DNA of 64,000 nt, taken from NCBI GenBank assembly GCA_041697335.1, contig JBGUGD010000039.1:96001-160000 (forward strand), written 5' to 3'. This stretch comes from Vampirovibrionaceae bacterium NZW_1234. Lineage in GTDB: Bacteria > Cyanobacteriota > Vampirovibrionia > Vampirovibrionales > JAGQHJ01. Positions 49,651-63,915 of this stretch are shown here, one piece after another. Position 1 is the first letter of the stretch, and each line of letters starts with the position of its first letter. The notes under the pieces were generated by a model, which had not been told where the DNA came from, searched no databases, and worked only from the letters and a program-made list of their open reading frames with translations. Made by a program: the position numbers and the translations under genes.

Positions 49651-50886
49651 ATGAGAGTAATTGCTGTCGCCAGCACCGAAGAAACCCGAAATATGCTTAC
49701 TAAGCAGCTCCAGCAGCTTAGTTTCATTAAGTTCGACGGTGTTGTGACAGAGCTTTCCGACGCCCAATCGTTGTGGCAAAAGCAAAAGCCCGATTTGCTC
49801 ATTATCGACCTGACCGACCGAGAGCTCGATGCCTGTCTCTTTATCGAAGTCATCAACTACAACGTCGAGAGCAAAACCGTGGTGTTCGGTCTGCACCGGG
49901 AACTGGATCCCAACATCATTGTCAAAGCCGTCTCCAGTGGTGTGAAAGAGTTTATTCAATACCCCAAAGACCCAGCAGCCCTGGAAGCTGCTATCGAAAA
50001 GCATTGGAACTTCCATCAAAAGCTGGCCTTGAAACAAAAAGGCGAAACAGAGCGCGACTACGGCAAAGTCATCCCAGTCTTTGGCAGTAAAGGTGGGGTC
50101 GGGGCCTCCACGGTGGCCGTTAACCTGGCTCACCAGCTACGCTTAGTGACCCGAAAACCGGTTCTCATCTTTGATATGGACCAGGTTTTTGGCAATACAG
50201 CCGTCATGCTCAACTTTAAGGCCAGCTATGCCCTGTCCGATCTGGTGAATGAAAACCCCAACGACATTGATGATGCCGTCTTGGATAAAATCATCGTCCA
50301 CCACGAAACCGGCATCGACCTGATTGTGGCTTGTAAAAGCGTGTTGGATGAAAACCCGCTCATCCCTCCCGAGCTTCTCGAGCGGGTCATGACCTACATC
50401 AAATCCCGGTATGAGTTCATCATCATCGATTTACCCACCCATGTCGTGGATCCGTACCACCAGTACTTTGTGGAAAGTGCCGATGATATTCTCCTGGTGT
50501 CGTCCTTGGACATTCCCGGCCTCTATCGGACCCGCCAGTACATCGAACTGGTGAAGCGCCACCTGGACACCAACAAGGTCAAGCTGATCCTCAACCGCTG
50601 CGACCTCAAAGCTGCGGTAGGAATGTCAAACGAAAGCATTGAAGAAGAGTTTAAATACCCGATCTACTTCCGTCTGCCCAACAATTGGCCGTTAAACGTG
50701 GAAGCCATGAGCCTGGGCCAGGCTCTGGGGATGGTATCTCCCCAGGCGGATTTGGTAAAGGCCTTTCAGGAACTGGCCACCAAGTTGTCCGGCATTGCCA
50801 CATCCTTGGAACCTGAGCGCCAGTCGGAAAAATCCACCGGATTCTTTGGACGATTAACACGGAGAAGCAGTCATGTCGCTGGTTAG
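49651..50886 (+). CDS. cpaE: CpaE/TadZ (receiver-like + MinD/ParA-like ATPase)
   Basis: N-terminal receiver-like domain (PDLLIIDL); deviant Walker A GSKGGVGAST; IIIDLP. Confidence 0.9.
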   Translation: MRVIAVASTEETRNMLTKQLQQLSFIKFDGVVTELSDAQSLWQKQKPDLLIIDLTDRELDACLFIEVINYNVESKTVVFGLHRELDPNIIVKAVSSGVKEFIQYPKDPAALEAAIEKHWNFHQKLALKQKGETERDYGKVIPVFGSKGGVGASTVAVNLAHQLRLVTRKPVLIFDMDQVFGNTAVMLNFKASYALSDLVNENPNDIDDAVLDKIIVHHETGIDLIVACKSVLDENPLIPPELLERVMTYIKSRYEFIIIDLPTHVVDPYHQYFVESADDILLVSSLDIPGLYRTRQYIELVKRHLDTNKVKLILNRCDLKAAVGMSNESIEEEFKYPIYFRLPNNWPLNVEAMSLGQALGMVSPQADLVKAFQELATKLSGIATSLEPERQSEKSTGFFGRLTRRSSHVAG

Positions 50887-52294
50887 ACAAGGTTGGGGCG
50901 GGTTCAACAAAAAACCCGGTGAATCGGGCCCAGGCCAAGAGCCTGAAACCCCGCATACCGAAGAAACGGCAAGTGAACTGACGGCAAAAAAAGACCAATC
51001 GGCAACAGCCTTGGCTGTAAAAACCGAAAAAGAGAGTGAATCCGAGCAACTGCGGGTCCGGATTCATCGCAGATTGATTGAAGAAATGGATACCACGCAG
51101 CTCAACGATATTAATCCCACAGAGCTGCGTAAACAAATCCGCCAGGCCGTCAATGAACTCCTGTTGGAAGAAAATGCCTTGCTAACCCAAATCGAGCGGG
51201 ATCGGCTGGTCGATGAAATTCTGGACGAAACCATGGGCTTGGGTCCCTTGGAGCCGTTACTGCGGGACAAAACCATCAGCGAAGTCATGGTCAACGGCGC
51301 CAAACACGTCTACGTGGAGCGCAAGGGCAAGCTCGTACTCACCGATGTGCAGTTCAAAGATGACGGCCACTTGATGCAAATCATCGATCGCATTGTCTCT
51401 CGCATCGGTCGCCGGGTCGATGAAAGCACCCCTCTCTGTGACGCCCGTCTTCAGGATGGCTCAAGGGTCAACGTTATCATTCCGCCCCTGGCCATTGATG
51501 GCCCGGCGCTGACCATTCGGAAGTTTTCGGCAGACCCCTACAAGGTCCAGGATCTGATTAATTTCGGCTCCCTCTCGCCTATGGCGGCCGAGGTCCTAAA
51601 AGCCTGTGTTTATGGCCGATTGAATATCATCATCTCCGGCGGTACGGGCTCCGGGAAAACCACGCTCCTTAACGTGGTCTCCAGCTTTATCCCCGATGAC
51701 GAGCGGATTGTCACCATTGAGGACGCCGCCGAGCTACAACTGCAACAGGAGCACGTGGTGCGCCTGGAAACCCGACCACCCAACATTGAAGGCAAAGGCC
51801 AGATTACCATGCGAGATCTGGTCAAAAACTCCCTTCGGATGCGCCCCGAGCGGATTGTTGTCGGGGAGGTCCGGGCCGGAGAAGCCCTGGACATGCTTCA
51901 AGCCATGAACACCGGTCACGATGGCTCTTTGACAACGCTTCACGCCAACACCCCTCGAGACGCCCTTCGTCGCCTTGAGACGCTGGTGATGATGGCAGGC
52001 TTTGACCTGCCGCAACGCGCCATTCGGGAGCAGATTGCCTCGGCCGTCGACTTGATTGTTCAGGCTTGCCGCCTGAGTGACGGAAGCCGCAAGGTCATGA
52101 GCATTACGGAAATCGTCGGCATGGAAGGCGACGTGGTGTTACTGCAGGATATCTTCCTCTTTCGCCAGGAAGGTGTGGATGAAAATGGCAAAATCATTGG
52201 CGAATTCAAATACACCGGTGTCCGACCCAAGTTCCTCGAACGAGTGCTGGCGTCGGGGGCCAAGCTGGATGTCTCGATGTTTGAGCAATTCTAG
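50873..52294 (+). CDS. cpaF: Tad pilus assembly ATPase CpaF/TadA
   Basis: [51 protein letters not shown]. Confidence 0.96.
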
Positions 52295-52324
52295 ACATCA
52301 AAGTGATGGAGGCACGTAGGCGCG

Positions 52325-53266
52325 ATGGATCCCTTGTATATTGTACCGGTCATCCCCATTCTCTTTGCCTTTGCGGGGGTGTACTACCTGTTCTTTGCCA
52401 AAAAAGACCAGGCCCGTGAGTTTGTTCATCAGCTCTTCAACGAAGAAGACCGCGCAGAGCAGATGCGGCGGATGCAGCAACAACATTACATCCTCAAAAA
52501 GCGCAACAAAGATCAAAGCAAGTTTCTCCAACGCCTGGATATGGATTTAGAGCGGGCCAACCTGATGATCAAACCCAACGAATTCATCATGTTGGCCGTT
52601 GGCGCCGCTTTTTTCTGCGGCCTGATTACTCTGGCCATGGGAAAAGGCCTTTTCCTGACCATTCTCGCTGGCACGGGCGGTTTCTTTTTACCCCAAATGT
52701 ACCTTAAAATCCGCATCATGATGCGGATGAGCAAAGCCCGGGCCCAGTTTGCCGATGTTCTGGACATGATGGTCAGCTGTTTCAAGTCCGGCTACGGCTT
52801 TGCTCGCGCCGTGCAAGTGGTGGCCGAAAACTTTACCGACCCCTGGTCCACGGAACTGAGTAAAGTGGCGGCAGAAATGAATTTCGGCTCTACCCAGGAA
52901 GATGCCCTATTGGCCCTGGCCAAACGGATTCCGAACCCGGATGTGGCCTTATTTGTGACCGCTGTTTTGATTCAGAAAGAAACCGGCGGCAACCTGGCAG
53001 AATTGCTGAGCAATCTGAGCCACACCATCCGGGATCGCTACAAGCTCCTCAGCAAAGTCAGCGCCTTATCGGCACAAGGCAAGCTTTCGGCCATTATTGT
53101 ATTTCTGATTCCCTTTGGTCTGGCCGGGGTATTTACCTTGATTATGCCCGAAATGATGAACAACTTTGCCCATAACCCCATTGGCATCTGTCTTATCGGG
53201 TTTGCCCTGGTGATGCAGGCCATTGGTGGCGTTGTACTCAAGAAAATCGTCTCATTGGAGGTGTAG
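52325..53266 (+). CDS. tadB: TadB inner-membrane platform protein
   Basis: T2SSF domain: IQKETGGNLAELL, ALSAQGKLSA. Confidence 0.92.
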   Translation: MDPLYIVPVIPILFAFAGVYYLFFAKKDQAREFVHQLFNEEDRAEQMRRMQQQHYILKKRNKDQSKFLQRLDMDLERANLMIKPNEFIMLAVGAAFFCGLITLAMGKGLFLTILAGTGGFFLPQMYLKIRIMMRMSKARAQFADVLDMMVSCFKSGYGFARAVQVVAENFTDPWSTELSKVAAEMNFGSTQEDALLALAKRIPNPDVALFVTAVLIQKETGGNLAELLSNLSHTIRDRYKLLSKVSALSAQGKLSAIIVFLIPFGLAGVFTLIMPEMMNNFAHNPIGICLIGFALVMQAIGGVVLKKIVSLEV

Positions 53267-53270
53267 TGCC

Positions 53271-54242
53271 ATGGAAATGATTATTCTCGGTGCGCTCATC
53301 TTCTTCACCTTGGCCATGGCCGCCTTCGGGGTCATCCAGTCGAAAAACGAAAGCCAGGTCAAAGCCCGCGTATCAAACCTGAACCCAGGTGCGGCACCGA
53401 GCAAAGCCCTGACGGGCCGCCAGAAAAATTTTGATGACAGCTTCACCCAGCGGGTCATTATTCCCTTTGCCCAAAACCTGTCGGATAAAATCCAAACCCT
53501 CATTCCTTTGTCCGGCAAATCCTGGATTCGAATGAAGCTGATGCAGGCCGGATACTTGCGCCCGCAGTACCAGCGAACCTTCATGGGCGTTCACTGTATT
53601 ACCACCGTGGCCCCGTTGTTGTTTGTGGCCTTTCTGGTCCTCATTACCCACTCGGTATCAGGCCTGGTCGCGACGCTTCTGTTTGTCATGTTTGGCGGAA
53701 TGGGCTTCTTTATGCCCATCCTGTGGCTCATTCAGCAAGCGTCCAAACGGCAAAACAGCATCCGAAAAGCCCTGCCGGATTTTCTCGATCTCCTGGTCAT
53801 CTGCGTGGAGGCTGGCTTGGGCTTGGATGTGGCCATTGCCAAGATTTCCAAGATCGAGTCCGTACAGACCTCTGAGTATTTAAGAGAGGAACTGCTGCGG
53901 TATTCCAAAGACATCAGCTTTGGCAAGCCTCGTAAGGATGCGTTGATGGATTTGGCCAACCGGACCGGGATTGACGACCTCAATGCCATCGTCAACGCCT
54001 TGATTCAGGCTTATGAAATGGGCACCGGCGTGGTTCAGGCCTTGAAAGTCCAGTCGGAAGGTCTTCGCCAGAAGCGCCTTCACCGGGCCGAAGCGGCTGC
54101 CAACAAGATTTCGGTCAAAATGGTGCTGCCCATCTACATGTTCTTCTTTCCGGGCATCTTTATCGTGATTCTCGGCCCCTTAATCCTGCATGCCTTCCAG
54201 CAGATTACGCAAACCATGCACCAGACCGGCGGTGGCCCTTAA
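53271..54242 (+). CDS. tadC: TadC inner-membrane platform protein
   Basis: LPDFLDLLVICVEAGLGLD, KISVKMVLP; ATG 53271 with GGAGG upstream. Confidence 0.92.
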   Translation: MEMIILGALIFFTLAMAAFGVIQSKNESQVKARVSNLNPGAAPSKALTGRQKNFDDSFTQRVIIPFAQNLSDKIQTLIPLSGKSWIRMKLMQAGYLRPQYQRTFMGVHCITTVAPLLFVAFLVLITHSVSGLVATLLFVMFGGMGFFMPILWLIQQASKRQNSIRKALPDFLDLLVICVEAGLGLDVAIAKISKIESVQTSEYLREELLRYSKDISFGKPRKDALMDLANRTGIDDLNAIVNALIQAYEMGTGVVQALKVQSEGLRQKRLHRAEAAANKISVKMVLPIYMFFFPGIFIVILGPLILHAFQQITQTMHQTGGGP

Positions 54243-57428: not shown

Positions 57429-58214
57429 TTAATCCAGAATCAAAGGCGCATTACGCTCGTGAGGCAAGCGGTACAGCCCCGGCGGCGGGGCTGCCTGCTG
57501 GCCTTGGGTTCTTGTCAGATCCAACGGCACATTAAGGCGCACCACCAGATTATGATTCAGCTGATTGCGACCGGGGCTGGCCACATCCACAAACTGCAGC
57601 ATATATCCGGCCTCGACAAAGGACTTGTTCTTAAACGTCCGACGAAACCCCGTAAACACCCGCTCCTGGTTAAACCCTGAATCAATGTGAGGCGTATCAT
57701 TAAGGTTCATCAGCAGCTCATTACTGGCCACCCAGGACCAGGGTCCTTTACGAAGGGGCACGAGTGCCCGAATCAAATAACGTCCCCGGACCGACACCTC
57801 GGCCTGATCCTCGATAAACCGTTGCTCCAGGCGAAACTGATGATTAAACCGGACCTTTTTAACGGCATGATTAATCATCGCCTGCTGCCACACCCGTTGC
57901 TCAAACTGCACACTTGAATCCCCAGCATCATCGGTCGGAAAAATGGGGGACCATAAATAACCGGCGGTCAGGCTCAGATGCGTGTTCACATCATAGGTCA
58001 CAGACGGGCGCACCCGGACCAAGGCCAAATGGGTGACGTTCTCTGAAATACGAGGCTGCACCTCCACCGACAACCGGAATTTCTTGACCGGAACCTCCAG
58101 GGTTACCGGCAGCCAAAGCTGCAAATCGTCTTCTAGAGCCCATGCGCTTAGCCCGCTCTGGGCAATCAGCAGCACCCCAAGCAGCAACCCCATCCCCCAC
58201 CTGAAAAAAATCAT
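57429..58214 (-). CDS. DUF2490-like outer-membrane beta-barrel protein
   Basis: Signal peptide; EQRVWQQ, RLEQRF, FNQERVFTG, VEAGYM alternating beta strands. Confidence 0.8.
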   Translation of the reverse strand: MIFFRWGMGLLLGVLLIAQSGLSAWALEDDLQLWLPVTLEVPVKKFRLSVEVQPRISENVTHLALVRVRPSVTYDVNTHLSLTAGYLWSPIFPTDDAGDSSVQFEQRVWQQAMINHAVKKVRFNHQFRLEQRFIEDQAEVSVRGRYLIRALVPLRKGPWSWVASNELLMNLNDTPHIDSGFNQERVFTGFRRTFKNKSFVEAGYMLQFVDVASPGRNQLNHNLVVRLNVPLDLTRTQGQQAAPPPGLYRLPHERNAPLILD

Positions 58215-58522
58215 TTCTATAGACCTGAGTTCAATGACACACAAGGAAGAGAAATCTGCCGCAGCAATCCACTCCGGGGCACCAGATCACCGCTTAGACC
58301 TTCATCGACTCTGGAACCAAGGTTCCCAATCCGGAAAAATACTGAACAAAGACAAATTGAGACACGTGAGCGTTTCATAAAAGATGCTCCCGACTATGCT
58401 ACTGGAATCTCAAACATCCACTCAGGCAGAAACAGCTACCTTACCGAGAATCAACCCGAAGAATCCGATTTCGCTCGGCCTGCGGGAATCCCAAGCCCCT
58501 ATGCCGTGGGCTCAACGTCTGT

Positions 58523-58741
58523 TTAGGATTTTTTGTGGCCCTTGCCCAGAAACACCGAATACAGCAGCAAGGCCATACAAATTCCCAGAATAATGACAAT
58601 GGACCAGAGCACCAGGCTGCTACTCAGGAAGAGGGTGGGCAAGAACAAGGTCATCAGGAAGAACAACCCAAAAAAGAACAGCACCCAGTGTTCATCAACA
58701 AATTCGGTGAACGTCATATGATCATGATCGTGATCGGACAT
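58523..58741 (-). CDS. Small 2-TM protein with His/Asp-rich N-terminus, end of respiratory operon
   Basis: MSDHDHDH..., GAGGGAG RBS. Confidence 0.7.
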   Translation of the reverse strand: MSDHDHDHMTFTEFVDEHWVLFFFGLFFLMTLFLPTLFLSSSLVLWSIVIILGICMALLLYSVFLGKGHKKS

Positions 58742-58762
58742 AATGTGTGATGCTCCCTCTGA

Positions 58763-58891
58763 TTACGCTTCTGCAATGAGACCGAAACTGGCAATCATCA
58801 ACAGCAGGAAAAAGAAAAAGGAATAAAACCAGATATATCTCATAAAGAGACCGATTTCTTGCTGTGAATCGACTTTGGCGGCTCGAACCAT
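58763..58891 (-). CDS. 42-aa single-TM protein not in the ORF track
   Basis: MVRAAKVDSQQEIGLFMRYIWFYSFFFFLLLMIASFGLIAEA*; AAGGAG upstream; fills the gap between neighbouring genes. Confidence 0.65.
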   Translation of the reverse strand: MVRAAKVDSQQEIGLFMRYIWFYSFFFFLLLMIASFGLIAEA

Positions 58892-58917
58892 GGTGTCAGC
58901 GACTCCTTCTATCTATC

Positions 58918-59331
58918 TTACGACTTTGCGCCAGCGCCGGCGTCATACGTATTGAGGAAGCTGACAAACTCCGTTGCCATTTCCCCAAAGCGGCTGTACT
59001 CCAGAGCCGATAACCAGTAGGCCTGAATGCGCTTACGATCGATGCTGGCACGCAGTTTGGGCTGACGCTCACCTTCCAGGCGAGCCTTGAGAAACTTGTT
59101 GCCTTCGCGGTAATAGCAATCACCAATACGGCAACCCGTGGTAATAACGCCTTCGGCGCCCTGTTTCAAGGCCGACTCAATCATGGCCGGTTGAATATGG
59201 CCACTGCATGGGACCTGAATGACATGGACATCAGGGCATTCAGACAGACAGCGATTGTTATCGAGTCTGTTTTTGAAATCAACACTCCGTTCGCAAACCA
59301 GAGCGATTACTTTAACTTTTTTGGCATTCAC
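58918..59331 (-). CDS. MvhD/FlpD-like [2Fe-2S] protein (hydrogenase iron-sulfur subunit family)
   Basis: ALVC, QVPCSGHI, GAEGV..TGCRIGDCYYREGN; GTGA overlap with the upstream gene. Confidence 0.88.
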   Translation of the reverse strand: MNAKKVKVIALVCERSVDFKNRLDNNRCLSECPDVHVIQVPCSGHIQPAMIESALKQGAEGVITTGCRIGDCYYREGNKFLKARLEGERQPKLRASIDRKRIQAYWLSALEYSRFGEMATEFVSFLNTYDAGAGAKS

Positions 59332-60536
59332 GATTGGGTGCTCCCTGCTAAAGCAACTTGTATCTCTTTCAGTACAACATCCGTAGTCATGCGGGGAATT
59401 TCAATGGCCTTAAAGGCACAGGCCCCAACGCAAAGACCACAGTTGGAACAGCGATCGGCGTTCACCACAGCCAAGCGCTTGAATCGGCTGTCATCATCCC
59501 GATCGACCATCTCAATGGCTTCGTAAGGACAGTCGTGGTAGCACAAGGAGCAACCGGTACAGTTGTCGGTCACCACCTGAGCAAACTGGCCCTGGAACTG
59601 TTTCTTTTGAATATAGGGCAAGAGTAACATTGCGACCGGGATGCCCAGGGTCACAGCCCATGCGGCCTGGAGACTGGCACCATTGGCAATCAGGCCATGG
59701 GGCAGCATGTAAAGCCAGTCAATCTCCAGTACACCACCCGGATTGGTCAGGTTCGGCGGGGCACCGACTTTAATCGGCATCAGGCCACAGGCCACCAACA
59801 AGCCACCGAACATCATCAGGTTCAACACCAAGGGGGCATTGGTCACCGGGCGGGTAATGCGCAGGTAATGCCACCAGAGGAAGAAGAGCATGGAGGTGGG
59901 GATAGCCAGGTGGAGAAACAGATAGCGGGTCAGCGTGAAATCGGTGACGATGCTGCCGCCAATCAACAGCTCTGCCAAGGCCTTTCCGCCAAAGGGAAAC
60001 GCTTGGAGGAAGTTGGTGGTGACATAGGTCAGGGTCACGGAGTTGTCATCCCAAATCAGCATGTACCCGGTCAAACCGGCCAAAAAGAGAATCGTAAACA
60101 GGATGACCCCGGTGATCCACGGTAAAATCCGATACTCCCGGTAGCGATCCGTAAACCAGACGCGGAAGAAGTGCAGCAGCACGAAGATCATCATCCCATC
60201 GGCCGCATACCGGTGCATGGCCCGAAACAGCGCCCCGGACGGAATCTGATTGGTCATATAGAGAATCGACGGGTAGGCCCGTTCCAAGGTGGGGTTGTAG
60301 TAGGCAAACAACAGCAGCCCGGAAATGAACAACACCCATAAAAAGAAGTTGGGCAACGCACCATGGTAATAGAACGGATTGAACTTTTGTGAAAACACGA
60401 CGTTCAACAAACGCTCAATACCCAGCGTCAGCCGTTGCAATTGAGAGATCAACCCTCGATAAGCATCAGAAATGGCTTGGCGTACCACCTTGTTTAATCT
60501 CCTATGATCTATCCGCTTCAGACTTGGTGACGACAT
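59328..60536 (-). CDS. Cytochrome b (four His retained) fused to a 2x[4Fe-4S] ferredoxin domain
   Basis: RAMHRYAADGMMIFVLLH, TGYMLIWD, FLHLAIPTSMLFFLWWH; C-terminal CTGCSLCYHDCP and CSNCGLCVGAC. Confidence 0.9.
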   Translation of the reverse strand: MSSPSLKRIDHRRLNKVVRQAISDAYRGLISQLQRLTLGIERLLNVVFSQKFNPFYYHGALPNFFLWVLFISGLLLFAYYNPTLERAYPSILYMTNQIPSGALFRAMHRYAADGMMIFVLLHFFRVWFTDRYREYRILPWITGVILFTILFLAGLTGYMLIWDDNSVTLTYVTTNFLQAFPFGGKALAELLIGGSIVTDFTLTRYLFLHLAIPTSMLFFLWWHYLRITRPVTNAPLVLNLMMFGGLLVACGLMPIKVGAPPNLTNPGGVLEIDWLYMLPHGLIANGASLQAAWAVTLGIPVAMLLLPYIQKKQFQGQFAQVVTDNCTGCSLCYHDCPYEAIEMVDRDDDSRFKRLAVVNADRCSNCGLCVGACAFKAIEIPRMTTDVVLKEIQVALAGSTQS

Positions 60537-60732
60537 TATCCTCTTTGTCCAAAGCGGTCAGTGCGGCCCCAATGGCAACAAAGACCAACCCGGCACCCAA
60601 CGCCCAGCGAAAATATTCGTGGGGATTGTTGGCTGTCAGTGTTTCGGCATTGAACATGAGATAAAGCCCGACGAAGCCTAGCGCGGAAAAAACGACGGCA
60701 ACTGCGACTTTCAGAACTTGAAGAACAGGCAT
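60502..60732 (-). CDS. Small 2-TM protein in respiratory operon
   Basis: 76 aa, two hydrophobic helices, TAATG overlap with the upstream gene. Confidence 0.7.
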   Translation of the reverse strand: MPVLQVLKVAVAVVFSALGFVGLYLMFNAETLTANNPHEYFRWALGAGLVFVAIGAALTALDKEDNVVTKSEADRS

Positions 60733-61010
60733 TATTGGCTTTTCTCCCGATGTCGTAATTTACAATACTGATGATCGATCCATTCAAACAACCCGACCTG
60801 GCGGACCAGTTTATCTTCGCGCTTGGCCTTCATATAGGCGTCATGACCGAGGATAATCAGGGTGAGGACCAGAATGCTCAACCACAAAATGAAGTTCGGC
60901 ACACTGGCCTCGGGCGACTCGGACGTCAAGAGGCGCGAAGCGGCAAAGACCTTGGACAGAGCAAAGGTCGATACCAGAAACCAGGTCCACCATAGCAGTC
61001 GTTGGATCAT
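60732..61010 (-). CDS. Small 2-TM protein in respiratory operon
   Basis: MIQRLLWWTW...; ATGA overlap with the cytochrome b stop; GGAGG upstream. Confidence 0.7.
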   Translation of the reverse strand: MIQRLLWWTWFLVSTFALSKVFAASRLLTSESPEASVPNFILWLSILVLTLIILGHDAYMKAKREDKLVRQVGLFEWIDHQYCKLRHREKSQ

Positions 61011-62437
61011 GCGGCTTTGGCCTCCTGTGCCACTTGGCGCTTGGAGCCGGTGGCCATAAAGATCAGGCTTAAGCCCAAGAGCAGCAACGAGTAAATGAAC
61101 CACATCGTAAAGTAGGGATGTTTGGCAAATTCAAAGGTGTTGTGAACGATGCTCGGATGATCGGCATACAAGAGATTCATAAACCCTTGCGGTGCCGGTT
61201 TGGGCATCACGTACAGGAAGAAGTACCAGCCGCTCAGCAACAGGTTGGGAACCACAAAGAACAACCAAACATGGATTTGACGGTAGATGGCGTAATGCCA
61301 CAATTCGGCAACGGTCATCATCACGATCATTTGGGCATACCAGATTGGCGGATCCCGGTTAATGTCGGCCACGTTCATGATGATCAGGATGGAGAACAGG
61401 ATAAAATCGATCAGACCGATAATGGCCGCCACGGTAAAGATGGGCCGTTTCCAGGGATCCCGCTCGGGACCGAAATCCAGAAACATTAAGGCAATGGTAA
61501 TAAACGGAATACCCACGGTCCAAATGGTTGCCCAGTAAGGATCCATGTACTTCAGCAATTGGTACAGCGCCAGGAAGTACCAGTCCGAAAGAATCGGCAG
61601 GGGAGTAACCTCCGGGTTGGCCCGGCTGCCCATTTCCGCGGGCAACACAATGGTGGTCAACAGCAGCATCCCGATAAAGGTCAGCACTGACCAGCGGGGC
61701 AGGTTAATACGCTTGTACCGGTTTTTGTAGAAATACAGTTCGGAAATCACCAGGGCAATCAGGGAGATCCCAAAGTGCAGGGAGAAGAAGCGAGTCATCG
61801 TCGCCTGACCGATGGAGGCCCCTCCCAGAAGCATCTGGGAAACGTTGTTGCCTTGATTGGTGTATTGGCCTAACAGAAACGTGGTCGTCCCCACAAGCTT
61901 GGGGAAGAACCAGTATTCTGTAGGGGCTTTCACATCGAGGTAGGTGGGGAAGGTTCCGAAGATCTTGGTCGCCCAGAAGGCCCGTTGGTTCCAGATCAAC
62001 AGGTACCCGGTCAGACCGGAGTACATGGCGGCCACCAGGATGATCATCGCAAGAATAAAGGCAAATTCACCTTTATTCTTGTACTCGGCCCGGAACCACA
62101 TCCGATAAACCTTCAGGGTGGAGGCAATGATAATGGCGTCGCCACCATACTTGTGCATCCCCCGGATGATTCCCAGAATCAGGTTTTCCTTGATGGCAAT
62201 AATGGAATCATAGGCCTGAAAGGTACTGGGAATGTAAAACGCCACCAGAATCAGACCGGTAATCACCGTAATGATCCAGTACAAATAGGCGATACTGCCC
62301 AGTTGATACCAGGGGGAACTGGCTTGAAGGTCCGTTTTGGTTTCGTCAAAGACGTCGATTTTAGCAAACCGATCGGAGACGTAGCGAAACGCCTTGTCCA
62401 GCATCTGAGGGGGGTTAAAGGGTAAATTAACGCCCAC
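61007..62437 (-). CDS. Cytochrome b (unsplit b6 + subunit IV type) lacking both heme bH His ligands
   Basis: TGLILVAFY.PS..AYDS, RGMHKY, TGYLLIWNQRAFWA, TRFFSLH, ANPEVTP..ILSDWYFL, RDPWKRP. Confidence 0.9.
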   Translation of the reverse strand: MGVNLPFNPPQMLDKAFRYVSDRFAKIDVFDETKTDLQASSPWYQLGSIAYLYWIITVITGLILVAFYIPSTFQAYDSIIAIKENLILGIIRGMHKYGGDAIIIASTLKVYRMWFRAEYKNKGEFAFILAMIILVAAMYSGLTGYLLIWNQRAFWATKIFGTFPTYLDVKAPTEYWFFPKLVGTTTFLLGQYTNQGNNVSQMLLGGASIGQATMTRFFSLHFGISLIALVISELYFYKNRYKRINLPRWSVLTFIGMLLLTTIVLPAEMGSRANPEVTPLPILSDWYFLALYQLLKYMDPYWATIWTVGIPFITIALMFLDFGPERDPWKRPIFTVAAIIGLIDFILFSILIIMNVADINRDPPIWYAQMIVMMTVAELWHYAIYRQIHVWLFFVVPNLLLSGWYFFLYVMPKPAPQGFMNLLYADHPSIVHNTFEFAKHPYFTMWFIYSLLLLGLSLIFMATGSKRQVAQEAKAA

Positions 62438-63052
62438 TTATGCAATACCTCCTCGTTCTAAATCCGTAATAACCAGCGTCTTGGACGCCTCATCCAAGTG
62501 GAAGGCAAATTGCCGGGGCGGACGAGGTGCAGGACCACTGACCACCTTACCGGACATGGATTTTCCATCCACGTTTTGATCCTGCAAGGGGTCATAAACG
62601 CTTAAGTGGCAAGGACAGCCAAAAACAGGCAACCCTTGCGGGGGCTTATAGTTAAAACTGGCGGCCGACTCTGCCGGATCCGGCAGGTAGCGGAAGATAC
62701 ACCCCATGTGCGGGCAGATGCGGCTGTAGGCCACAAACTGATAATCATCGGGGCTCTTGCCGGGAATCCGAAGGACGTAACCGGGAATTTTACTGATTTG
62801 GGCCCCTTGCCGGGTGTACTCCGGCGCTTTTTGCTCGTAGACGAATTCCTGAACCACCCAGGGTTCAGGGAATGCCGACAGAGGGAAGGTAATGGGCTTC
62901 ACACTGGAGGGCATATCGGGCTTGGAAACCATCCCATGGGGGAAGGGTCCGGCCGTGGGCTTCAGGTACCGGAACAAGGGTGACACAAACAGCAGGAGCG
63001 CTCCAAAAAGCGGGACGCTCAGCGCAAATTTCAAAAATAAACGTCGATTCAT
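62438..63052 (-). CDS. Rieske [2Fe-2S] protein with Tat signal
   Basis: MNRRLFLK; box 1 CPHMGC; box 2 CPCHLSVYD; GPAPRP. Confidence 0.93.
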   Translation of the reverse strand: MNRRLFLKFALSVPLFGALLLFVSPLFRYLKPTAGPFPHGMVSKPDMPSSVKPITFPLSAFPEPWVVQEFVYEQKAPEYTRQGAQISKIPGYVLRIPGKSPDDYQFVAYSRICPHMGCIFRYLPDPAESAASFNYKPPQGLPVFGCPCHLSVYDPLQDQNVDGKSMSGKVVSGPAPRPPRQFAFHLDEASKTLVITDLERGGIA

Positions 63053-63915
63053 CGGATACGATTCTCCCCGGATTCAGGCATCAGGGCACTGACTTCACGC
63101 ACAGGCTTTTTGGGCAAGGCGGAGGTCTTGGGTGCCTCTTTGGCTGGCGCAGCCTCTAAGTCATAGTCATAGGCAAACCCGCGGATGTATTTCACCAGGT
63201 CCGTAATGGTGGCCCGATCAAACACCACGTTCTTGTCCCGATCCGCTCGGCCTTTCCAGCTTGGCATGGCCGACGGATAGAGGCCTTCTTCAATAAACTT
63301 GATCAATTCGTTATTGGTCCGGTTGTACATCCGGGCATAGCTGTGGAAGTTGGCCGGCGGCGGGTTAAATTGGTTTTTCACCGGCGCCATGCCCAACTCG
63401 TGAGCCGACCCGTGGCCCGAATGCAGCGGACCGTCGGCAAAGCCTTTGGCCCCGTGGCAAACGGCACAGTTTCCACCAAACACGGCCGCAATGTCCTTGT
63501 TGGCAATCTGGGATTCACCGGCCAGGTGACGGGCATAGAAAACCGCTTCCCAACGCTGGTCTCGGGTCAATTGACGAAAAGCCGGGTGCTTGCCCCCATC
63601 GCCCTTGGTCAGAAACAGGTAGGTATCAATGGGGCGAGAGGCCATCATTTTTTCCGTGGCCATAGCCTTACCGGCGTGGCAGGAAGCACAGTTTTGCTCA
63701 AACACCACTTTGCCGCGGCTTAAGCGAGGCGGGCGCTCGGGGAAGGCAAAATCTTCCTCAACCAGCTTCTTGTTCAGCTCCGGAACAGCCACCAGAGTCT
63801 TGGCATTTTTAATCTGCTTTTCTTGCGTCGCACACCCGGCCAAGGTTCCCACCATCAGGACCCCGGCCAGAAGGGAGGCAAAAAGCGTTTGAAACGTCAG
63901 TGTCGTTTTGTACAT
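63049..63915 (-). CDS. Diheme c-type cytochrome lipoprotein
   Basis: Lipobox LAG-C; CASCH and CAVCH; distal SAMPSW. Confidence 0.88.
   Translation of the reverse strand: MYKTTLTFQTLFASLLAGVLMVGTLAGCATQEKQIKNAKTLVAVPELNKKLVEEDFAFPERPPRLSRGKVVFEQNCASCHAGKAMATEKMMASRPIDTYLFLTKGDGGKHPAFRQLTRDQRWEAVFYARHLAGESQIANKDIAAVFGGNCAVCHGAKGFADGPLHSGHGSAHELGMAPVKNQFNPPPANFHSYARMYNRTNNELIKFIEEGLYPSAMPSWKGRADRDKNVVFDRATITDLVKYIRGFAYDYDLEAAPAKEAPKTSALPKKPVREVSALMPESGENRIR

Follow-up and report, generated by a model that had tools for sequence, protein, structure and literature searches.

Asymmetric cytochromes b in a Rieske operon of a Vampirovibrionaceae bacterium: one without the haem bH ligands, the other with a degenerate Qo motif and a ferredoxin domain

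To our knowledge, all bc1 and b6f complexes studied so far are symmetric dimers. The stretch of DNA analysed here (the window; 64,000 nt from Vampirovibrionaceae bacterium NZW_1234, GCA_041697335.1, JBGUGD010000039.1:96,001-160,000, forward strand) encodes on its minus strand, in one operon with a Rieske protein, two different cytochromes b, referred to below as b1 and b2. The ligands of the inner haem bH are lost from b1, whereas b2 has a degenerate quinol-oxidation (Qo) motif and a C-terminal domain for two [4Fe-4S] clusters, and is accompanied by an MvhD-type protein. The locus raises the question of whether the two proteins divide the work of a single Rieske/cytochrome b complex and which way the electrons would then take. 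The proteins of the window were assigned to families with Pfam and NCBIfam, and the genome of NZW_1234 is 94.75% complete. Published work is cited throughout from excerpts of the respective papers.

Haem ligands and quinol-site motifs of b1 and b2

The b1 gene (61007..62437, minus strand) encodes a 476-residue protein of the long b6 + subunit IV type with extra C-terminal helices (Pfam Cytochrome_B and Cytochrom_B_C), in which a single chain spans both Pfam halves instead of the split b6 and subunit IV of the b6f type. HMMER alignments with cytochrome b6 (1q90_B, 7r0w_I, 2zt9_A) placed His95 (62153-62155) and His221 (61775-61777) at the first histidines of helices B and D, the ligands of the outer haem bL. 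At the second histidines of both helices, which ligate bH, b1 has Lys109 (62111-62113) and Tyr235 (61733-61735), each 14 residues further on, and its ligand set for bL and bH therefore reads H95, K109, H221 and Y235 in place of four histidines. An earlier note, made from the letters of this DNA, had reported the two bL histidines, the Lys and Tyr 14 residues after them and the motif SDWY; a codon check found all its coordinates to be right, with SDWY at residues 284-287.

The second cytochrome, b2 (59328..60536, minus strand; 402 residues; Pfam Cytochrome_B and Fer4 dicluster families), has His108, His122, His209 and His223 aligned with all four b6 histidines, the sequence IDWL (272-275) at the position of the Qo motif and two CxxCxxCxxxC motifs at 326-336 and 363-373. 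All of these features had been described in the same note and were confirmed by the codon check and the b6 alignment. In a BLASTP comparison, b1 and b2 shared 26% identity over 315 residues (E 2e-23), with SDWY aligned to IDWL; the two sequences run collinear as far as helix F, and the 2x[4Fe-4S] domain of b2 begins about 10 residues later. The best solved matches of both proteins were cytochrome b6 chains. The haem cn cysteine (CxGG) was found in neither of them, its position being occupied by Gln in b1 and by Tyr in b2, where His58 follows.

The ortholog check proposed in the earlier note for the two histidine replacements showed that they are conserved, with the helix-B residue being mostly Arg and otherwise Lys. 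An alignment of 119 database homologs and the query (120 rows) had Arg in 98 rows, Lys in 21 and one gap at the helix-B bH position, Tyr in 119 and Trp in one at the helix-D bH position, and LSDWY in all 120. A species-level scan with one genome per species revealed 80 loci, titled Vampirovibrionales (including Vampirovibrio chlorellavorus NCIMB 11383), Obscuribacterales (including Ca. Obscuribacter phosphatis) and Caenarcanales, from which 75 b1 and 80 b2 orthologs were taken. His221, Glu233 and SDWY were present in all 75 of these b1 proteins and His95 in 74 (one gap); the helix-B position held Arg in 72 and Lys in two (one gap), and the helix-D position Tyr in 74 and Phe in one. Among 80 metagenome contigs with b1, His95, His221 and SDWY were invariant, the helix-B residue was Arg in 77 and Lys in three, and the helix-D residue was Tyr in 62, Arg in 16, Phe in one and His in one. 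The 16 metagenome loci with Arg, which lie among L128-L169, read ELRVY for ELYFY, so that Arg stands at the ligand position and a Tyr two residues on.

A search with the b1 of locus L175, the one metagenome member with His at the helix-D position, added 95 proteins, many of them NCBI-named Armatimonadota. Arg or Lys at the helix-B position and SDWY were found in 95/95, and the helix-D position varied widely (Phe 36, Leu 23, His 17, Tyr 16, Arg 2, Gln 1). L175 itself, together with P0241-P0253, P0262 and P0263, forms a divergent b1 group, partly NCBI-named Armatimonadota or Chloroflexi, that kept the helix-D His next to a helix-B Arg or Lys and may represent an intermediate state of haem loss. 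Judged from these alignments, the trait of the b1 family is SDWY combined with the loss of the helix-B ligand, and the Tyr is a habit of the class and not a ligand. A replacement His for the bH site, which would have spoken against the loss, was conserved nowhere in b1: the candidate His381 was His in 26/75 and Gln in 49/75 of the species-level proteins, and Gln in 20 of the 120 alignment rows.

The long invariant runs of b1, residues 141-164 and 266-304, correspond to the cd and ef (Qo) loops, and the Qo motif in the ef loop, PEWY in its usual form, is present as the variant SDWY, with Ser in place of the usual first Pro. In the Obscuribacterales loci (L060-L101), b1 is 596-699 residues long in comparison with 476 in the window, owing to a long extra C-terminal part.

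In the ef region of b2, by comparison, only scattered residues are invariant, and the Qo-motif position varies (IDWL, IDWF, FDLL, VDWF and others). The haem ligands of b2 are nearly invariant: in an alignment of 120 homologs and the query (121 rows), the four haem histidines and His58 were present in 120-121 of the rows and the eight cysteines in all 121, and the five histidines were found in 80/80 species-level b2 proteins.

The ferredoxin domain of b2 matched the C-terminal ferredoxin domain of HdrA (7bkb_A 583-670, 5odc_A 574-647). Cytochromes b have a cytoplasmic N-terminus, and six predicted helices in b2 would thus leave this domain on the cytoplasmic side. The gene that follows (58918..59331, minus strand) encodes an MvhD/FlpD-type protein (Pfam FlpD, E 1.2e-23), a predicted [2Fe-2S] connector, which matched solved MvhD chains with E of about 6e-16 (5odc_D, 7bkb_F). 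Its Cys13, Cys42, Cys67 and Cys72 were conserved in 78, 78, 78 and 77 of 78 orthologs, respectively. The b2 ferredoxin domain and MvhD together matched consecutive parts of HdrA2 (566-642 and 648-770). A four-cysteine MvhD beside a 2x[4Fe-4S] ferredoxin domain, as in the Mvh/Hdr module, is accordingly found here; of the partners of that module, neither the hydrogenase MvhAG nor a full flavoprotein HdrA was found in the genome at its completeness of 94.75%. By homology, a known wire of three predicted clusters is attached beside the inner haem of b2.

Co-occurrence and pairing of the two cytochromes and the genes around them

The two genes are seldom found apart. In the 80 species-level loci, the recurring order was CcoN, CcoO/P, cytochrome c, Rieske protein, b1, two small transmembrane proteins, b2 and MvhD, with b2 present in 80, MvhD in 78, a separate b1 in 75, the Rieske protein in 73, cytochrome c and CcoO/P in 71 each and CcoN in 69. 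A separate b1 is missing from five loci, three of which are cut 407-1275 bases upstream of b2. In the other two, L026 and L027 from Vampirovibrionales metagenome-assembled genomes, the operon is split: an open reading frame (ORF) of 241-250 residues without a Pfam family and then b2 and MvhD stand behind rpoC or an ABC transporter gene, and b1 is on another contig in both genomes. Where metagenome contigs extend 3.2 kb or more beyond b1, b2 and MvhD were found in 47/48. In the 48th, L106, the closest metagenome relative (b1 75% identity), the match to b2 ends at residue 283 and the contig continues; a frameshift, an assembly break or a true truncation could account for this stop.

In a sample of 251 genomes of the class (b1 threshold E <= 1e-40), b1 was detected in 143, b2 in 140 and both in 138, i.e., in 138 of the 145 genomes holding either. 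The seven mismatched genomes (five with b1 only, two with b2 only) are all 56-87% complete, and b1 and b2 were each found in 84/182 of the high-quality class genomes. Families with neither gene exist as well (e.g., 0/74 in f2). A phylum-level genome search with b2 returned mostly PetB of photosynthetic cyanobacteria, with only G153 and G165 as true relatives, and a protein-atlas search with b1 gave archaeal cytochrome b clusters at 0.91-0.92 and was uninformative.

From cytochrome c to MvhD, neighbouring genes overlap or touch at their stops and starts (ATGA, TAA-GTG, ATGA, TAATG and GTGA): the Rieske start overlaps the cytochrome c stop in ATGA, and the GTG start of MvhD overlaps the b2 stop by 4 nt in GTGA. 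The ATG of b2 at 60536 lies 35 nt within the preceding ORF. By this arrangement, b1 and b2 are evidently coupled in translation within one operon.

A fold model of b1 with b2 reached an interface score (ipSAE, interaction prediction score from aligned errors) of 0.61 (0.61, 0.62 and 0.61 in three runs) in comparison with 0.00 for the best control, with 100% agreement of contacts across the runs and a partner pLDDT (predicted local distance difference test) of at least 76. The mark applied was reached by 116/157 solved complexes and 2/215 mismatched pairs. The modelled interface joins residues 58-74 and 211-237 of b1 to residues 70-90 and 199-224 of b2, with helices A and D of each chain against helices D and A of its partner around His221 of b1 and His209 of b2, which is the canonical dimer interface. 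Solved homodimeric relatives, bc1 and b6f, exist, and the pass may come from likeness to them; moreover, the model covered the b1/b2 pair only and does not separate a heterodimer from two homodimers.

The losses of the two proteins complement each other. In b1 alone, the second electron of quinol would have no outlet because there are no inner-haem ligands, and in b2 alone the outer haem would have no source because there is no conserved quinol site. A heterodimer with an obligatory crossing is therefore the simplest reading of b1 without bH ligands and b2 without the Qo motif. The two bL haems of bc1 lie within transfer distance, and an engineered, cross-inactivated bc1 turns over on the catalytic time scale (PMC7908018). 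We infer that b1 and b2 probably form an obligate heterodimer with a forced passage from bL to bL. The obligate heterodimer had been proposed in the earlier note; the co-occurrence, the coupling in one operon and the canonical interface of the model speak for it. The same note let the electron run on from bH of b2 to the cytoplasmic [4Fe-4S] clusters, or the reverse; it may instead go to a quinone site.

The remaining genes of the operon fit a Rieske/cytochrome b cluster, with a Rieske protein carrying CxH...CxxH boxes and a c-type cytochrome both present. The Rieske [2Fe-2S] protein (62438..63052, minus strand; Pfam Rieske) has a twin-arginine N-terminus (MNRRLFLK), and its boxes CPH[L/M]GC and CPCH[L/F]SV[Y/F] were conserved in 73/73 orthologs. 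The dihaem cytochrome c (63049..63915, minus strand; Pfam Cytochrome_CBB3 and Cytochrom_C) has a lipoprotein-type signal (LAGC), a single N-terminal hydrophobic segment and CxxCH at residues 76 and 150; it is predicted to accept the electrons of the Rieske protein and to donate them to a cbb3-type oxidase. Beyond the window end, upstream of cytochrome c on the same strand as the operon, are a FixO-family and cytochrome c protein (CcoO/P-like, L001:6300-7253) and then a COX1-family CcoN (L001:7311-8741), i.e., a C-family oxidase.

Between b1 and b2, two small membrane proteins are encoded. The first (60732..61010, minus strand), with one predicted helix, belongs to an ORF whose longest form extends to 61103; its likely start is the ATG at 61010, overlapping the b1 stop (ATGA). 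An ORF with one or two predicted helices occupies this position in nearly all related loci, with sequence similarity in 21/80. The second (60502..60732, minus strand; 76 residues, two predicted helices) follows with a TAATG overlap, and a two-helix ORF stands immediately ahead of b2 in nearly all related loci. After MvhD, the window has an ORF for a small membrane protein (58523..58741, minus strand; 72 residues; similarity in 3/80 loci), whose membership in the operon is uncertain, at the place where Vampirovibrionales loci have an ORF of about 150 residues with four predicted helices. The spacer between this ORF and MvhD (58745-58900, minus strand) holds an unlisted ORF of about 42 codons with one hydrophobic stretch (MVRAAKV...LIAEA). 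These small ORFs may be remnants or split parts of the four-helix ORF.

Further along in the window, the operon is followed by a DUF2490 protein (57429-58244, minus strand; Pfam E 4.9e-43), for which no match was found at the same place in the other loci scanned. Upstream of RNase III-like and CdsA-like genes, the plus strand holds three ORFs (50873-54242) whose translations, judged by eye, resemble a Tad/Flp-like pilus-assembly ATPase with two polytopic membrane partners.

In the whole NZW_1234 genome, PF00033 matched b1 and b2 only, the only MvhD is the operon gene and the only haem-copper oxidase (COX1) is the operon oxidase; a cytochrome bd oxidase is encoded elsewhere. A second Rieske-domain match (66.7 bits) in a 417-residue frame outside the operon (G000:C13:192322-192585) probably belongs to an unrelated Rieske-type enzyme.

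Possible routes of the electrons

The reading put first here, though with somewhat less than even confidence, is a Q cycle with one lane, which combines the heterodimer and its crossing with a net input of electrons through the iron-sulfur arm into menaquinone. The core of the one Rieske/cytochrome b complex in this organism would then be a heterodimer of b1 and b2 with three b haems, and menaquinol would be oxidised at the SDWY site of b1 only; the class has been reported to possess the menaquinone (mqn) pathway (preprint 10.1101/2024.07.27.605408). The first electron would reach the cbb3-type oxidase by way of the Rieske protein and the dihaem cytochrome c, and the second would go from bL of b1 to bL of b2 and on to bH of b2. 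More tentatively still, b2 may have one quinone-reduction site, served by this bH, at its cytoplasmic face, and the wire bH - [4Fe-4S] - [4Fe-4S] - [2Fe-2S](MvhD) would connect that site to some cytoplasmic redox partner. On balance, electrons of a low-potential donor, for example ferredoxin, would enter by the arm and reach menaquinone by way of bH. Input is favoured because it is downhill and has the same polarity as the module in Hdr complexes, where MvhD is distal and the ferredoxin domain proximal to the catalytic centre. Such an entry from the cytoplasm would be functionally like the ferredoxin-to-haem-cn route proposed for b6f (Dibrova 2017, PMC5600118).

Several observations weigh against this proposal. 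The counted genomes are kin and the collections overlap, and the counts are therefore not independent and overstate the evidence. The residue five positions after His223 of b2 is Thr, at a place where bc1 has His and b6 has Arg. No soluble gene was conserved downstream of MvhD across the orders in the related loci. Neither the [NiFe] hydrogenase large subunit (PF00374) nor NuoF had a match in the NZW_1234 genome at its completeness of 94.75%, and a full HdrA was not found there, the HdrA2 model giving domain-sized matches only. Although the bH ligands of b1 are lost, its Gly47, at a position where glycine reportedly provides the space for haem bn (Dibrova 2017, PMC5600118), is invariant (80/80 metagenome loci). 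The loops of b1 on the cytoplasmic side show strong conservation as well (D28, F30-E32, E233, Y237, R243, N245), and together with Gly47 they indicate that this side of b1 has some function. Finally, an input role gives no selective reason for the universal loss of bH from b1, which an output role explains better.

The output role is the strongest rival, though unlikely in our estimate. It keeps the same heterodimer and crossing and does away with a working quinone-reduction site: the electron would leave through bH, the [4Fe-4S] clusters and MvhD to a cytoplasmic acceptor. Bifurcation at the Qo site would push the low-potential electron outward while the other one goes to oxygen, and the complex would make reductant. 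The absence of bH, and of any quinone-reduction site, from b1 throughout would follow, since any further inner haem would act as a short circuit by which the energetic electron is lost to the quinone pool. Proteins related to b2 and fused to FAD/NAD(P)H domains have been read as quinol:NAD+ oxidoreductases (Kao & Hunte 2014, PMC4122944; 10.64898/2026.01.22.701106), and anammox Rieske/cytochrome b complexes are proposed to make NAD(P)H (PMC12954380). With NuoF not found in the genome, a ferredoxin-type carrier pool may be central. The energetics speak against an exit to ferredoxin. Menaquinone lies at about -75 mV, a low-potential Rieske centre at about +150 mV and ferredoxin at about -400 mV; by our own estimate from these potentials, the second electron would come out at about -300 mV at best in the absence of a membrane potential and at a less favourable value with one, which puts ferredoxin reduction out of reach and leaves milder acceptors only. 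Moreover, the neighbourhood of the operon holds no conserved gene for an acceptor.

Should the arm be an exit, the sister lineage of cyanobacteria and Armatimonadota would make reductant by aerobic respiration itself, through an electron bifurcation that starts from quinone and delivers to a soluble carrier.

A good deal less probable is the existence of two separate machines, with b2 and MvhD forming a homodimeric quinone-linked or transmembrane module and b1 with the Rieske protein a homodimer of its own that lacks the inner haem. Proteins combining cytochrome b, 4Fe-4S domains and MvhD do occur without a Rieske gene in other bacteria (the 'PDWF-FeS' clade; Kao & Hunte 2014, PMC4122944), atlas clusters of cytochrome b with Fer4 were commonest in Pseudomonadota and Armatimonadota, and in two genomes b2 and MvhD stand with one upstream membrane ORF apart from b1. 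A b1 homodimer, however, would have Qo sites and bL and no outlet for the second electron, and the bL ligands of b2 are invariant, yet there is no conserved site to feed this haem. The near-complete co-occurrence, the translational coupling and the canonical interface of the modelled pair also argue against separate assemblies.

Very improbable is that b1 keeps its inner haem with Tyr235 or Lys109 as an uncommon ligand, which would make the asymmetry smaller than the sequence suggests. Tyr and Lys are able to ligate haem in other proteins, the helix-D residue is Tyr in 119/120 and 74/75 of the b1 proteins within Vampirovibrionia, and Gly47 is invariant. The helix-B residue, however, is mostly Arg (98/120, 72/75 and 77/80), which is not a haem ligand, and the helix-D residue is varied in the wider family, with Arg in 16 metagenome loci, so that no inner-haem ligand is conserved in b1. 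Tyr235 was rejected as a ligand since proteins from outside the class do not conserve the Tyr. An origin by decay, from a pseudogene or from an error of sequencing in a single assembly was refuted and has next to no probability left, as the frames are intact and the same residues of b1 recur in hundreds of relatives from independent assemblies, which makes the trait a conserved one.

Comparison with known systems

A full-text literature search, whose coverage left out most subscription journals, yielded no account of an SDWY cytochrome b or of the asymmetry in haem ligands. Aerobic Melainabacteria have been described as having a complex III-IV fusion with a C-family oxidase (PMC6349859; preprint 10.1101/531145; both citing Soo et al. 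2017), and the excerpts of Dibrova et al. 2017 (PMC5600118) do not mention Melainabacteria. In the survey of Kao & Hunte 2014 (PMC4122944), as excerpted, sequences were removed if even one of the four histidines was missing; a family like b1 would have been discarded by such a filter, and the four-histidine requirement of surveys is thus a blind spot for b1-like sequences.

Natural losses of an inner-haem histidine are known. The fourth His, a bH ligand, is lost from the cytochrome b of Pyrobaculum (Kao & Hunte 2014, PMC4122944), and the helix-2 His is replaced by Glu or Gln in the cyanobacterial subfamily K (Dibrova et al. 2017, PMC5600118). In contrast to b1, a single ligand is lost in these cases, and the excerpts mention no complementary second cytochrome b.

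In its architecture, cytochrome b + 2x[4Fe-4S] + MvhD, b2 resembles the 'PDWF-FeS' clade, which includes cytochrome b-4Fe-4S-MvhD proteins of Magnetospirillum magneticum and Turneriella parva and, in Alicycliphilus, a cytochrome b fused to a ferredoxin and a flavin reductase (Kao & Hunte 2014, PMC4122944). Cytochrome b-[Fe-S] proteins also stand beside eNOR in Ferrigenium (10.64898/2026.01.22.701106). The clade has no Rieske protein and kept PDWF, whereas b2 has a separate MvhD gene, a degenerate motif, a place in a Rieske operon (73/80) and b1 as a partner. The match of the b2 ferredoxin domain and MvhD to the Mvh/Fdh-Hdr complexes (5odc, 7bkb) covers the C-terminal ferredoxin domain of HdrA and MvhD, but the flavin domain of HdrA and the hydrogenase were not found in NZW_1234, and the module is attached here to a membrane haem protein.

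With the proposed arm, the non-photosynthetic bacteria closest to cyanobacteria would have a b6-like cytochrome whose cytoplasmic face carries a ferredoxin-like wire. This is relevant to the debated route of cyclic electron flow from ferredoxin to b6f and to a possible exchange of electrons between Rieske/cytochrome b complexes and cytoplasmic carriers.

A functional parallel to the proposed heterodimer may be the engineered, cross-inactivated bc1 (PMC7908018), which combines a monomer with a working Qo site and a monomer with the only working inner branch and thereby forces the electron over the bL-bL bridge. That enzyme is a laboratory construct, built to show that the bridge functions, whereas the pair described here is natural and conserved and has, in our proposal, an added iron-sulfur arm. 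The meaning of the bL-bL bridge and of the 'H-shaped' electron system was called 'unclear but intriguing' in the same review (PMC7908018). If the heterodimer is real, it would be a natural, conserved complex with its sole quinol site and its sole inner haem on different subunits, in which the bL-bL crossing is obligatory. The same operon is present in the cultivable Vampirovibrio chlorellavorus NCIMB 11383 (L043), which makes the proposal testable.

With the canonical bc1 and b6f complexes and the menaquinol:cytochrome c reductases of Gram-positive bacteria, the system shares the Rieske protein, the bL ligands, a P/SxWY-type site, a c-type cytochrome and a cluster joined to an oxidase. It differs from them in that the canonical complexes are homodimers of one four-histidine cytochrome b, whereas here two paralogs would divide the work. 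The asymmetry of b1 and b2 is a variant of an established Rieske/cytochrome b enzyme and is of high interest for bioenergetics.

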